Made by a program: the position numbers and the translations under genes. Shown piece after piece: positions 41,327-44,342 of a stretch of DNA of 64,000 nt. Source of the DNA: an uncultured Bacteroidaceae bacterium (GTDB lineage Bacteria > Bacteroidota > Bacteroidia > Bacteroidales > JAADGE01); assembly GCA_964472505.1 (NCBI GenBank), contig CAYYQW010000002.1:43750-107749 (forward strand), written 5' to 3'. Under the pieces are notes generated by a model. The model did no database searches and had not been told where the DNA came from. It saw nothing but the letters and a program-made list of their open reading frames with translations. Numbering within the stretch: the first letter of the stretch is position 1; every line of letters begins with the position of its first letter.

Positions 41327-41545
41327 AAAAATTTGCCAAATTTGTACCCGTAAAAAGCCTGAAAATCAATAATTTCCCGGCTACCAAGCAAGCCCAAATT
41401 CGGCAGTTTTAAAAGAAACACTTCAAAACGTCCGGAGGACTTTTGAACGTGTGGGCAGAAAGGCGGGCGGTAGGTTTTTATCGACCATGACGTTTTGAAG
41501 TCCTCCGGACGTTCAAAAGTCATTGACCCACGAAACACAAGCACC
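41327..41545 (+). repeat. Palindromic repeat locus 1 (modules A0-C0-B0)
   Basis: A0 (41327-41410) is a diverged copy of the A module. C0 is a bulged hairpin at 41418-41452 and B0 is a bulged hairpin at 41487-41523. The tail CACGAAACACAAG is shared with locus 2. Confidence 0.85.
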
Positions 41546-41681
41546 AACACACATAACAAAAAAATATCACATTTATATTTGCATTTTTGATTTCTTTTTA
41601 TTTGCTTTACAAGCGAAAACAAAACCAAACTGTATTTTGAATGAATCTTAGAAACCAAAAACCGAAAAGCACCGCTTTTGT

Positions 41682-41715
41682 AGAGAGAGAGAGAGAGAGA
41701 GAGAGAGAGAGAGAG
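41682..41715. repeat. (AG)17 dinucleotide microsatellite
   Basis: The tract is 34 nt of perfect AG repeat. It lies 160 nt upstream of the C10 peptidase ATG, and no long + strand ORF crosses it. Confidence 0.95.
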
Positions 41716-41874
41716 CAATAGCTTTTTCCGATATACCACGACAAAATATATTTTCATTTTATGCAAGAATAAGTTTATTCGGAAGGTGCTGTTAAAATTT
41801 TCTTTGCGGAATATTTAACAGCTATAAACGTTTTTTATAATTCGAAAAAATTTATTAATCATAAAAAATTGCAC

Positions 41875-43167
41875 ATGAAATTACATCACTTTAAATCTAT
41901 AACCCTATTTATTGCAGCTGTATTTTTTTTCTTTCAAAGTTGTGAAAAAGAGAACTATCAAGCTGCCGAAAGTACAAATGAGATAAAAAAAGAAACAATT
42001 ACCAAGAGCAACCCGCACAGCGTTTCGGAAAATGAAGCAGAGCAGTTTGCTTTAAATTTTTATAATACACATTTTAGTAACAAGAAAAACCAAAAAATTA
42101 AGAACCTAAAAAAAGTGAAAGTTCCCATACCCGGGAAAAAGCTTTATGCGGCCGAGATGGAACCCAAAGGCTATGTTATTATGTCGGATGACAAAAGAAA
42201 CGTACCGGTTTTTTCGTTTTCGGAAAACGGATCGTTTGATTATAAAAGTTTAGACGATTTGCCCCCGGGAGTAAAAGAATGGGCTACTGAATTTTTGCTG
42301 ATGAATCTGCACTTGCAGAGCAACCATGATAAATCGCAAAAAGAAAACCGACAAACCCAATTGTGGAACACCTACCTCGACAACAATACCGAAGAAAAAA
42401 TAATTACTCCGGAAGAATGCGATCATTATTTTGTTGAGCACGTGCAAACCATATATGATGACTGCATTATGGAAACCGCTTGGGGACAAGGGCCTCCATA
42501 TAATCTACTAACTCCGATATGCGATGATGACGGAGACCACACTCCCGCCGGCTGTGTAGCCGTAGCCATGGCGCAGGTAATGAAGTATTGGCAACATCCC
42601 GATGACTTTTCTTGGGACATCTTGAAAAACTATTATTCATCCAATGAAACAAACCGAAGCGCCTACGAGGCAGCCGGACTAATGAAAAACATCGGCGATA
42701 ATGTTTCAATGAATTACGGATGTGACGGTTCCGGTGCTTCTCTAAATAAAGCAAAAAAAGCTTTGGATAATGACTACGGCTACAATGACAATATTGTGTA
42801 TGATGATTATCATATTGATGATATCAAAAATAATATACAATTCGGGTATCCGGTAATTTTGGGCGGCTTTAGAACAGTTCAAGAATGGCTCGGGATAAAA
42901 ATATATCTGAACGGGCACGCTTGGGTAGCCGATGGTTATTGGTTGGAATACGACCGCTACAAAGAAGTATGTTATACAGGAGGTGGTGTTCCGCTTGAAC
43001 GTTATTATTCAAAAAATTATCAATACTACATTCACATGAATTGGGGTTGGAGTAATAGAAGCGGAGAAAACACTTGGTATTACAGCAATGAACTTACTGC
43101 ACCCGATAACGGCTCCGGAAATGATTACCAATGGAATAAAAGCATGATTATAAATATTCACCTTTAA
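41875..43167 (+). CDS. C10 family (streptopain/SpeB-like) cysteine peptidase lipoprotein
   Basis: The protein has a lipobox (FFQSC) and an N-terminal propeptide-like region. The catalytic Cys context is PAGCVAVAMAQVMKYW and the catalytic His context is NGHAWVADGY. The HMNWGW motif is also present. All three contexts match SpeB-type signatures. Confidence 0.85.
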   Translation: MKLHHFKSITLFIAAVFFFFQSCEKENYQAAESTNEIKKETITKSNPHSVSENEAEQFALNFYNTHFSNKKNQKIKNLKKVKVPIPGKKLYAAEMEPKGYVIMSDDKRNVPVFSFSENGSFDYKSLDDLPPGVKEWATEFLLMNLHLQSNHDKSQKENRQTQLWNTYLDNNTEEKIITPEECDHYFVEHVQTIYDDCIMETAWGQGPPYNLLTPICDDDGDHTPAGCVAVAMAQVMKYWQHPDDFSWDILKNYYSSNETNRSAYEAAGLMKNIGDNVSMNYGCDGSGASLNKAKKALDNDYGYNDNIVYDDYHIDDIKNNIQFGYPVILGGFRTVQEWLGIKIYLNGHAWVADGYWLEYDRYKEVCYTGGGVPLERYYSKNYQYYIHMNWGWSNRSGENTWYYSNELTAPDNGSGNDYQWNKSMIINIHL

Positions 43168-43177
43168 AACAGACACC

Positions 43178-43633
43178 ATGAAAAACATACTTTTAATTTT
43201 AAGCACTTTAGCATTAATAATGCTGTTTGAAAATTGCGACAAAAACGGAGAATTTATATGCACCGCAGACCATTTTGTTTTTTTAGACGAAAATGGTGAA
43301 GATATTTTTAATACAGAGAGTAATTGTTACATTGATACGTCGGATATTAAGGTTTTTACTCCGGAGAATGAAGAATATCCCATTATATTTGGATTTAGCG
43401 ACAGTTTGAAAATGTACAGCATAGATATAGGGATAAATGGCAAAATCGGACAGGAAGATACTACATTTATTCAGTTCGGAGATTTTAATGTGGATACCAT
43501 TCGTGCCGTTTACACAGAAGAAGGACATTTACAGATTGATGAAATGTATTACAACGACTCATTAATTGAATCATTTTGCAATACACCAAAAGCTCATAAA
43601 ATCACCGTAAAACCGGATTCTGTTTACAACTAA
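43178..43633 (+). CDS. Small lipoprotein, candidate cognate protease inhibitor (staphostatin/Bfi-like by position only)
   Basis: The protein is 151 aa with a lipobox (LFENC). It starts 10 nt after the peptidase stop. The function is inferred only from the known protease-inhibitor gene pairing. Confidence 0.55.
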   Translation: MKNILLILSTLALIMLFENCDKNGEFICTADHFVFLDENGEDIFNTESNCYIDTSDIKVFTPENEEYPIIFGFSDSLKMYSIDIGINGKIGQEDTTFIQFGDFNVDTIRAVYTEEGHLQIDEMYYNDSLIESFCNTPKAHKITVKPDSVYN

Positions 43634-43663
43634 AGCCGGTTTACGCATGAGGGAGGCTGAATC

Positions 43664-44342
43664 AAAAAATCTGCCGGATTTCTACCCATAAAAAGCCGAT
43701 AAGTCAATAAGCTTCCAACTACCAAGCAAACCCAAATCCGGCAGATTTATTTGTTTAGCTAAATCTGTCCGACCGCTTTGAGCGGTCAGACGGATTGAAA
43801 CCCTGACGTTTTGAAGTCCTACGGACGTTCAAAAGTCATAGCCGCGGCACGATTTTCAACCAACCGCAAGTAAAACCTCACGAAACACAAGTCCGCCAAT
43901 ACCCGAAACACTTCAAAACGTCCGACAGGACTTTTGAACGTGTGGGCGAAAGAACAGGCCGTAAATTTTCACAGACCATGACGTTTTGAAGTCCTGCCGG
44001 ACGTTCAAAAGTCATAGCCGCGGCACGATTTTCAACCAAACGCAAGTAAAACCTCACGAAACACAACTTCGATAATACCCGAAACACTTCAAAACGTCCG
44101 ACAGGACTTTTGAACGTGTGGGCGGAAGAGTAGCTGAATAAATAAACCCATGACCTTTTGAAATTGATAAAAATCTGCCGGATTTTTACCCATAAAAAGC
44201 CGATAAGTCAATAAGCTTCCAGCTACCAAGCAAACCCAAATCCGGCAGATTTATTTGTTCAGCTAAATCTGTCCGACCGCTTTGAGCAGTCAGACGGATT
44301 GAAATCCTGACGTTTTGAAGTCCTCCGGACGTTCAAAAGTCA
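43664..44342 (+). repeat. Palindromic repeat locus 2 (modules A1-B1-C1-B2-C2-truncated B-A2-B3)
   Basis: The direct repeats 43664-43838 and 44168-44342 are 175 nt long, 504 nt apart, with 6 mismatches. The B hairpins are at 43805-43838, 43980-44013 and about 44307-44342. The C hairpins are at 43908-43943 and 44084-44119. The B-to-B period is 175 nt and the C-to-C period is 176 nt. Confidence 0.9.

Follow-up and report, generated by a model that had tools for sequence, protein, structure and literature searches.

Repeat clusters at a C10 peptidase locus

The stretch of DNA analysed here (the window) comprises 64,000 nucleotides of contig CAYYQW010000002.1 (positions 43,750 to 107,749 of the forward strand; GenBank assembly GCA_964472505.1) from an uncultured Bacteroidaceae bacterium of the GTDB lineage JAADGE01. 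It carries two clusters of hairpin-forming repeats, one on either side of a gene for a C10 cysteine peptidase with an Inhibitor_I69 propeptide and of the gene for its lipoprotein-like partner (Table 1). The repeats are of three kinds, designated modules A, B and C, and an additional hairpin (hp2) stands behind two of the A copies. As argued below, B and C probably belong to a family of repetitive extragenic palindromic (REP) sequences. An earlier reading, made from the letters of the sequence without database searches (the sequence-only reading), had described the three modules and a recent duplication among them; the modules, their coordinates and the duplication were reproduced by direct reading of positions 41000-44700 and by a repeat finder, far above chance. 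As it had also stated, only the C10/I69 gene and a small lipoprotein-like open reading frame (ORF) lie between the clusters.

Table 1. Repeat modules and associated genes of the window, and hairpins beside or inside the RAYT-like gene at other loci (RAYT, REP-associated tyrosine transposase)
Feature	Position	Strand	Remarks
Module A0, degenerate A copy	41322..41411	+	76-81% identical to A1/A2 (repeat finder, blastn); no second hairpin; abuts C0
REPIN-like doublet 0	41415..41523	+	C0 (41418-41452), 39-nt spacer, B0 (41488-41522); hairpins mutually inverted
C10 cysteine peptidase gene with Inhibitor_I69 propeptide	41875..43167	+	Pfam PF01640 4e-28, PF13734 5e-9; same gene call in public assemblies
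Lipoprotein-like partner gene, 151 aa	43178..43633	+	no Pfam match
Module A1	43656..43759	+	26-nt imperfect inverted repeat around 52 nt, perfect 15-bp core
hp2 of A1	43762..43796	+	G+C-rich 15-bp stem with one mismatch, 35 nt (fold)
Hairpin B1	43804..43838	+	REP with G bulges on the + strand
REPIN-like doublet 1	43905..44015	+	C1 (43908-43943), 39-nt spacer, B2 (43979-44014)
Truncated doublet 2	44081..44162	+	C2 (44084-44119), spacer, left arm of B alone (44151-44162, TGACCTTTTGAA)
Module A2	44164..44263	+	repeat finder
hp2 of A2	44266..44300	+	35 nt; offset of +504 from hp2 of A1 inside the 174-nt repeat
Hairpin B3	44308..44342	+	
Isolated degenerate half-site	11732..11765	-	resembles one B arm; sole other trace of the family in the window
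Hairpins at L063			stems CTCAAAT and CTTTGTT
Hairpins at L064			stems CTCGAAT and ATTCGAT
Hairpins at L065/66			stem TTTTAAA
Hairpins at L070/71			stem CTTCCAA, bulged T
Hairpins at L060 (Ancylomarina salipaludis SAXA01000006)	3236-3317 of L060		stem CTATCAG, bulged T; two scaffold-type hairpins inside the RAYT-like ORF, between HUH and Tyr

The upstream cluster (A0-C0-B0) sits in a divergent promoter region, and the downstream array begins 23 nt past the stop codon of the operon. The latter runs B1-72 nt-C1-39 nt-B2-72 nt-C2-39 nt-truncated B, bounded on each side by an A/hp2 module, and its B1-C1/B2-C2 block forms a 176-nt tandem repeat of 1.9 copies. The segments A1B1 and A2B3, 504 nt apart, are 96.6% identical over 174 nt (6 mismatches), and C0-39 nt-B0 matches C1-39 nt-B2 with 88% identity across 112 nt, the spacer included. 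Both the perfect 15-bp inverted repeat and the second hairpin previously read in module A were confirmed in A1 (arms at 43667-43681 and 43734-43748) and in A2 (arms at 44171-44185 and 44238-44252). The two arms of B occur 8 and 7 times in the window with up to 2 mismatches, against 0.16 and 0.05 occurrences expected, and all 7 full copies of B and C in the 64 kb are intergenic. When folded as single-stranded DNA, A1-hp2-B1 reaches -39.8 kcal/mol (z = -7.2), and doublet 0 (C0-spacer-B0) forms a single long hairpin of -25.4 kcal/mol (z = -4.3). The degenerate half-site is likewise intergenic, lies upstream of an MTHFR gene and may be a decayed REP. A search of the 47 ORFs of the window against Pfam gave no match to a transposase or integrase family.

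Public annotation places a 144-aa gene without a Pfam match at 41323-41757 (- strand), where it spans A0, C0, B0 and a perfect (AG)17 tract; it is almost certainly a spurious ORF over the repeats.

Structure of the B and C hairpins

Module B can be written as GAC-G-TTTTGAA-GTCC-loop-GGAC-G-TTCAAAA-GTC. Its foot of 3 bp is followed by a bulged G, an A/T stem of 7 bp and a G/C stem of 4 bp; the loop measures 3-4 nt, and a further G is bulged in the second arm. Read as its reverse complement, C is built in the same way except that the 7-bp stem is flipped (TTCAAAA/TTTTGAA), so that B and C represent a single type of REP hairpin occurring in both orientations. Of the claim that all modules point the same way, the part concerning A and B (+ strand) stands; module C, which corresponds to a B hairpin of the - strand whose 7-bp stem is flipped, has the opposite orientation, and B and C therefore form inverted doublets. 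The C-39 nt-B doublet, about 110 nt long, can fold into one long hairpin, and its geometry is that of a REPIN, an inverted doublet of REPs.

Each small hairpin, when folded, has precisely two bulges of one base at fixed positions, and the general scaffold is 5'-(G/A)AC-G-[7 bp]-GTCC-loop(3-4 nt)-GGAC-G-[7 bp']-GT(C/T)-3'. In an alignment of 60 distinct hairpins, 98% of the cells were paired and changes on both sides were seen in 7 of the 14 pairs, with a covariation score of 0.365; shuffled controls scored 0.131, and registers that had been slid scored no more than 0.109. The outermost pair, which the search pattern left unconstrained and which was hence not used for selection, was GC in 28 hairpins, AU in 24, CG in 2 and GU in 2, with 4 unpaired or other. 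Perfectly paired 7-bp stems included TTTTGAA, TTCAAAT, TTTTCAT, TTCAAAA, TTTTAAA, CTCGAAT, CTCAAAT and CTTTGTT. The structure is thus conserved through compensated change.

Distribution in other genomes

Scanning genomes with the B pattern gave exact matches in 55 loci of about ten bins, none of them from the window's own genome; the bins were assigned to Bacteroidales and Lentimicrobiaceae, and one was labelled Chlorobiota. B and C are therefore not confined to the window, and a relaxed search of these 55 loci found 130 copies of B and 44 of C. Of hairpins with the general scaffold, JALNZT01 had at least 76 and JALSLF01 at least 44, in 16 loci each. Nearly all scaffold hairpins (152 of 155) were located outside ORFs of at least 150 aa, although such ORFs cover 75% of the DNA of the loci.

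Neighbouring hairpins were mostly inverted doublets, 22 with gaps of up to 20 nt and 22 with gaps of 21-60 nt, and the partner of the TTTTGAA stem differed by genome (TTCAAAT, TTTTCAT or TTCAAAA). Some loci contained tandem mosaic arrays (218 nt x 6 and 191 nt x 4.2), in which the DNA between the hairpins was also repeated. Only the hairpin is common to different species; module A and the spacers of the window are absent from the 55 loci. The hairpins adjoined unrelated genes (LepA, DEAD helicase, subtilase and others) and, when all ORFs of the loci were clustered, a RAYT family alone recurred among the neighbours.

Public short-read contigs of the locus break at B1 and B3: one (L058) ends at 44363, 21 nt past B3, and another (L068) starts at 44326, inside B3. 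Contigs bearing homologues of the RAYT-like gene are, in many cases, about 1 kb long. Repeats present in many copies would be expected to cause both, and the breaks suggest that B is multi-copy in the source organism too. These hairpin repeats also explain why metagenome assemblies of such organisms break at these sites.

A RAYT-type gene flanked by the hairpins

The association with RAYT genes that the sequence-only reading had proposed looking for was found in related genomes, where B/C hairpins flank a gene of the Y1 transposase type. At two loci (L048 and L036) hairpins with the B sequence lie on both sides of a gene for a protein of 220-227 aa, the two proteins being 51% identical to each other. 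At L063, L064, L065/66 and L070/71 the gene is flanked by hairpins of the same scaffold with other stems or bulge bases (Table 1), which brings the number of independent loci with a hairpin-flanked gene of this size to at least six. The hairpin and the enzyme appear, from these sequences, to vary together, as in known REP-RAYT pairs (PMC2817692, PMC6006769).

The two proteins match the NCBIfam model NF047646, 'REP-associated tyrosine transposase', with E = 6e-11 and 3e-13. Homologues number 767 at E <= 1e-5, mostly from Bacteroidales/Bacteroidia bins, and some have been named RayT by the Joint Genome Institute (JGI). An alignment of 30 sequences revealed the invariant motifs NHFH (H53, H55) and Y[IV]HxNPVxH (Y160, H162, N164, P165, H168), the order and spacing of the HUH motif and the catalytic tyrosine being those usual for Y1 enzymes. 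The protein profile matches the TnpArep structure PDB 4ER8 at 4.5e-4, the alignment spanning both motifs. The AlphaFold2 model (pLDDT 91.1) had 4ER8_A as its top Foldseek match in PDB (E = 1.5e-6, TM 0.66 on the target), followed by the TnpA proteins of ISDra2 and IS608. Besides this predicted core, the protein has two additional parts of about 60 aa each, a variable one inserted between HUH and Tyr and a conserved one extending the C-terminus. Judging by its motifs and modelled fold, the flanked protein of about 220 aa is a putative divergent RAYT, a Y1 HUH transposase with extra domains.

Array polymorphism in a sister strain

In a strain with about 94% identity to the window (L067), the site of the 680-nt array is occupied by one A-B unit, a difference of 504 nt. 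The diagnostic sites of this unit are A1-like on its 5' side and A2-like on its 3' side, so that the difference could have arisen either by a crossover between A1B1 and A2B3 or by duplication in the lineage of the window. The earlier proposal of a recent duplication or gene conversion of A1B1/A2B3 agrees with the single unit of this strain, and the content of the array is thus polymorphic. The B hairpin of the strain (L067 1596-1651) has a loop of 28 nt (TCTCCTTCGGCTGTTGCTCAGGAACCAC) instead of TCC, which indicates that the B loop tolerates insertions.

The repeats as a probable REP/REPIN family

RAYT genes are known to be flanked by REPs, and REPINs are inverted doublets of REPs (PMC3116915, PMC2817692). 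For Bacteroidetes, 'atypical secondary structures' that lack GTAG have been described on the flanks of TnpAREP genes (PMC6006769). With a probability of roughly 0.8, we regard B and C as a REP/REPIN family arranged in clusters similar to bacterial interspersed mosaic elements (BIMEs) and mobilised in trans by a RAYT encoded outside the window. This reading of the sequences is preferred because the hairpins are stable, are distributed extragenically in many copies, form doublets and flank in related genomes a gene whose product has the motifs and the predicted fold of a RAYT. The clusters show the alternating REP orientation, the recurring linkers and the array size varying between strains that mark BIME-like clusters. 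The non-autonomous REP/BIME/REPIN-like family offered as one of two possibilities by the sequence-only reading is thus supported by copies that are multiple and extragenic in about ten related bins and that stand beside RAYT-type genes.

By analogy with known REP-RAYT systems, the genome of the window would possess a RAYT that recognises the bulged hairpin as single-stranded DNA, and its arrays would expand and contract by recombination. The enzyme, probably encoded by a single-copy gene elsewhere in the genome, might bind the bulged hairpin in single-stranded DNA and cut and rejoin beside it, thereby spreading REP doublets into intergenic DNA. The arrays might then lengthen or shorten by unequal recombination or replication slippage between direct repeats. 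Module A and hp2, which are species-specific, are interleaved with the REPIN units in the clusters. Secondarily, the downstream array may serve as a 3' structure of the mRNA.

Several observations weigh against this interpretation. The 64-kb window contains no RAYT homologue detectable by tblastn, in agreement with the earlier statement, also borne out by Pfam on the 47 ORFs, that no transposase, integrase or REP-associated Y1 transposase is visible there; the pairing of these copies with a RAYT is deduced from other genomes. Contigs of RAYT homologues with a source pattern similar to that of the window all proved to be from other samples. The NF047646 scores of the two proteins (42.5 and 49.9 bits) are significant but divergent, lying under the curated cut-off of 80, and Pfam Y1_Tnp gives 16.9 bits versus a cut-off of 23 for one protein and no match for the other. 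The canonical 5' tetranucleotide GT[AG]G is absent, the foot being (G/A)ACG with variable 5' flanks. This excludes the canonical GTAG superfamily, while the atypical REPs of Bacteroidetes (PMC6006769) still fit. Module A was not found by blastn in the B/C-bearing loci of other genomes, and it may or may not belong to the same mobile system. The difference between the window and the sister strain is equally explained by plain homologous recombination, and no transposition event was observed. Finally, all full copies in the 64 kb flank one accessory gene pair, which is somewhat more clustered than a random placement of two arrays.

A different role, as RNA, might be proposed for the hairpins: they would then mainly stabilise transcript 3' ends, attenuate or terminate transcription of the protease operon or encode small RNAs, their spread being secondary. 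The start of the array 23 nt past the operon stop and the stability of all hairpins fit such a role, as do the few G-U pairs present and the known stabilisation of upstream mRNA by REPs in Escherichia coli (PMC3733652). However, no T-runs follow the hairpins, no Rfam family matches them, and they occur in both orientations relative to the neighbouring genes, including in the divergent promoter region of A0-C0-B0. Intrinsic terminators and promoters at the repeats were rejected, since the scan remained at background level. The association with a Y1 transposase gene, moreover, points to recognition at the DNA level, and a role in RNA would be an exaptation compatible with a REP origin. We therefore consider a mainly RNA-based function unlikely.

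Short, partly palindromic and bulged repeats, regularly spaced in some genomes, also recall arrays of clustered regularly interspaced short palindromic repeats (CRISPR) or of integrons, in which B and C would act as CRISPR repeats or as attC sites. Extrahelical bases are a feature of attC sites. The DNA between the repeats, however, is itself repeated at 93-96% identity and so represents tandem satellites rather than unique spacers, and neither a cas gene nor intI or another integrase was found among the 47 ORFs of the window. There is no GTTRRRY core, several hairpins stand on each side of the gene pair, and across genomes the repeats are dispersed singly and as doublets. Both readings are refuted by the repetition of the 'spacers' and by the lack of cas and intI genes, and we give them practically no weight.

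Comparison with known repeat systems

The REP/REPIN interpretation can be set against several described systems. The family resembles the REP/REPIN-RAYT systems (E. coli TnpAREP, PDB 4ER8; REPINs of Pseudomonas fluorescens) in being composed of multi-copy intergenic imperfect palindromes, mostly inverted doublets folding as one hairpin. As in those systems, copies flank a Y1 HUH gene of about 200 aa and hairpin variants appear to co-vary with the linked transposase, and the predicted fold of the protein best matches 4ER8, the structure of a RAYT bound to a REP hairpin. Unlike them, it has no GT[AG]G guide, its foot (G/A)AC-G...GT(C/T) being itself paired; each hairpin has two fixed single-base bulges; the partners of a doublet are heterodimers with a flipped or altered 7-bp stem; and the protein has the additional insert and C-terminal extension and scores under the RAYT and Y1_Tnp cut-offs. 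The doubly bulged scaffold, the heterodimeric partners with swapped stems and the divergent RAYT with predicted extra domains are the features that distinguish the present family.

Among the closest known systems, compared by description, are also TnpAREP subclasses 2.6 and 2.4 (Quentin et al. 2018, PMC6006769), which share with the present family the phylum and the motifs NH[IFV]H and YI(H/x)[QN]NP. Genes of subclass 2.6 are described as being flanked by atypical structures without GTAG that have more genomic copies, and in subclass 2.4 REPs are inserted within the gene, in the part that separates HUH from Y, as seen here in Ancylomarina (L060). In contrast, the 'WQ' motif reported for these subclasses (PMC6006769) is LFE in the present family. 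The survey that defined them used a threshold of E < 0.01 for Pfam Y1_Tnp (PMC6006769), which this family barely reaches or misses, so that it may have been omitted.

The alternation of REPs, the recurring linkers, the copy number that varies between strains and the location at operon ends and in intergenic sites are shared with enterobacterial BIMEs, whereas the linkers found here (module A, hp2 and the spacers of 39 and 72 nt) are species-specific and have no sequence relationship to the enterobacterial ones. Similar to elements of the IS200/IS605 family (IS608, ISDra2), which have subterminal imperfect hairpins with extrahelical bases read as single-stranded DNA by a Y1 HUH enzyme, the hairpins are imperfect and bulged. 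Unlike in these insertion sequences, they are not the ends of a transposase-carrying element, their copies far outnumber the gene and no tnpB is present.

Another superfamily, the CGTC-tagged REPs (Di Nocera et al. 2013, PMC3733652), which includes Neisseria dRS3, shares with the hairpins the strand end CGTC/CGTT, the A/T start of the stem and loops of 3-4 nt. In it, too, head-to-head dimers predominate, and it has been reported in Bacteroidetes and Chlorobi and in mosaic clusters (PMC3733652). Its members have an unbulged stem of 8-9 bp, a loop of 4-5 nt and a CCA tail, their tag is not paired and no transposase goes with them (PMC3733652), whereas the stem here is of 14 bp with two bulges, the loop is of 3-4 nt, the tag is paired, the CCA tail is missing and a RAYT is linked. 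Judged by the verbal description of the CGTC REPs in print (PMC3733652), the present hairpins do not belong to them.

Taken as REPs, the repeats constitute a structurally defined family in uncultured Bacteroidales, whose hairpin combines two bulges and a constant scaffold with 7-bp stems that can be exchanged; more than 700 proteins accompany it as a family of candidate cognate transposases. They offer a clean system for asking how a Y1 enzyme might read bulges in place of a GTAG guide. To our knowledge, REP/REPIN-RAYT systems have been studied almost solely in Proteobacteria, and a search for literature linking REP or RAYT with Bacteroidales found no paper in the library covered. The tag polarity of Neisseria dRS3 is probably opposite to that of the present hairpin.

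The C10 protease pair and its surroundings

Homologues of the C10 gene in the sister strain and at two other loci (L073 and L075) are followed by a partner gene of 148-154 aa, and C10 with a downstream ORF of 148-149 aa forms a conserved two-gene module in other contexts (L073 1711-3457; L075 3459-5198). The Bfp/Bfi pairs of Bacteroides fragilis are an analogous case of a protease with a partner, and by this analogy the partner protein may be a protease inhibitor. In a related species (L069), whose downstream gene has 56% protein identity, the gene order is tRNA-YceI-SDR-pqiA-398 aa, with neither the C10 pair nor hairpins. There, a pqiA-family gene overlapping the SDR gene (L069 1488-2777) occupies the site of the repeat clusters and the C10 genes of the window. 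Because the related species has pqiA without the C10 pair or hairpins, the C10 pair is accessory at this site. No remnant of pqiA was found at the C10 site of the window, and a metagenome scan yielded no relatives of the downstream 396-aa protein.

As its second possibility, the sequence-only reading had proposed that the repeats are structured sites delimiting a mobile or amplifiable cassette. The clusters would then be functional boundaries of the C10 pair, acting by recombination between direct repeats or through a RAYT working on the hairpins. The syntenic site of the related species, which has pqiA in place of the cassette and no hairpins, agrees with this, as do the position of every full copy in 64 kb on either side of the cassette and the accessory nature of the C10 pair, which is found in varied contexts, in one case (L075) beside an IS91-family Y2 transposase gene and phage-integrase genes. 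Recombination between direct repeats, moreover, evidently occurs in this array. Against such boundaries, the window contains no recombinase, and neither a target-site duplication nor a compositional difference was found; recent horizontal transfer was rejected by composition, the G+C content of 0.33-0.42 being like that of the flanks. A0 is only 76-81% identical to A1 and A2, and the B shared by both clusters is just 35 nt, which makes a poor substrate for homologous recombination. The C10 pairs of L073-L077 lack these hairpins, and elsewhere the hairpins adjoin unrelated genes. The delimiting of a mobile cassette has thus no positive support, and we hold it to be very unlikely. Equally small is the chance that REPIN/BIME arrays serve as portable boundaries that capture, lose and move cassettes, by a RAYT acting on the outer hairpins or by recombination between arrays, with A as a species-specific adaptor.

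The bracketing of the C10 pair is most probably incidental, the REPs having colonised dispensable intergenic DNA beside an accessory gene pair. For the protease genes this outcome is deflationary, as there is no evidence of their mobilisation by the repeats, which are bacterial 'junk' repeats of an ordinary sort, found in a little-studied group, and not a special device for moving proteases.

A perfect (AG)17 tract at 41682-41715, about 160 nt upstream of the C10 start codon, could be a slippage-prone promoter element. Phase variation by this tract was rejected, its length being identical in the four public assemblies of the locus.

Module A and other features of the window

Module A is known only from the three copies in the window and from the sister strain. 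A metagenome-wide scan returned nothing for it, in a collection that lacked even the window's own locus. Both module A and hp2 have very stable folds, and module A has stop codons in every reading frame. Its 26-nt inverted arms are comparable to those of a miniature inverted-repeat transposable element (MITE); the three copies are all at this locus and have no common flanking duplication. Module A may thus represent another linker motif of REP-like kind, a MITE or an element of some other sort. Searches of the repeats in Rfam, at the gathering and E-value thresholds, gave only miRNA-hairpin noise. An origin of the repeats from tRNA was rejected, the sole tRNA found being tRNA-Lys at 39511-39584.

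The window and the sister strain also differ outside the repeat clusters. The strain has an insertion of about 1.36 kb (L067 7293-8654; window 49976-49983) with an IS256-family transposase (Pfam Transposase_mut), missing from the window, and the overlap of the alignments there, 8 bp, is what a target duplication of that length would produce. Conversely, a 1.9-kb segment of the window (53961-55860) that encodes a DUF6577 protein and an AbiEii nucleotidyltransferase toxin (type IV toxin-antitoxin) is not present in the strain.

Two RNA genes of the window, a Bacteroidales small signal recognition particle (SRP) RNA at 46467-46575 on the - strand (Rfam RF04183, 91.6 bits) and the tRNA-Lys(ttt) on the + strand, help to place the window in Bacteroidales.

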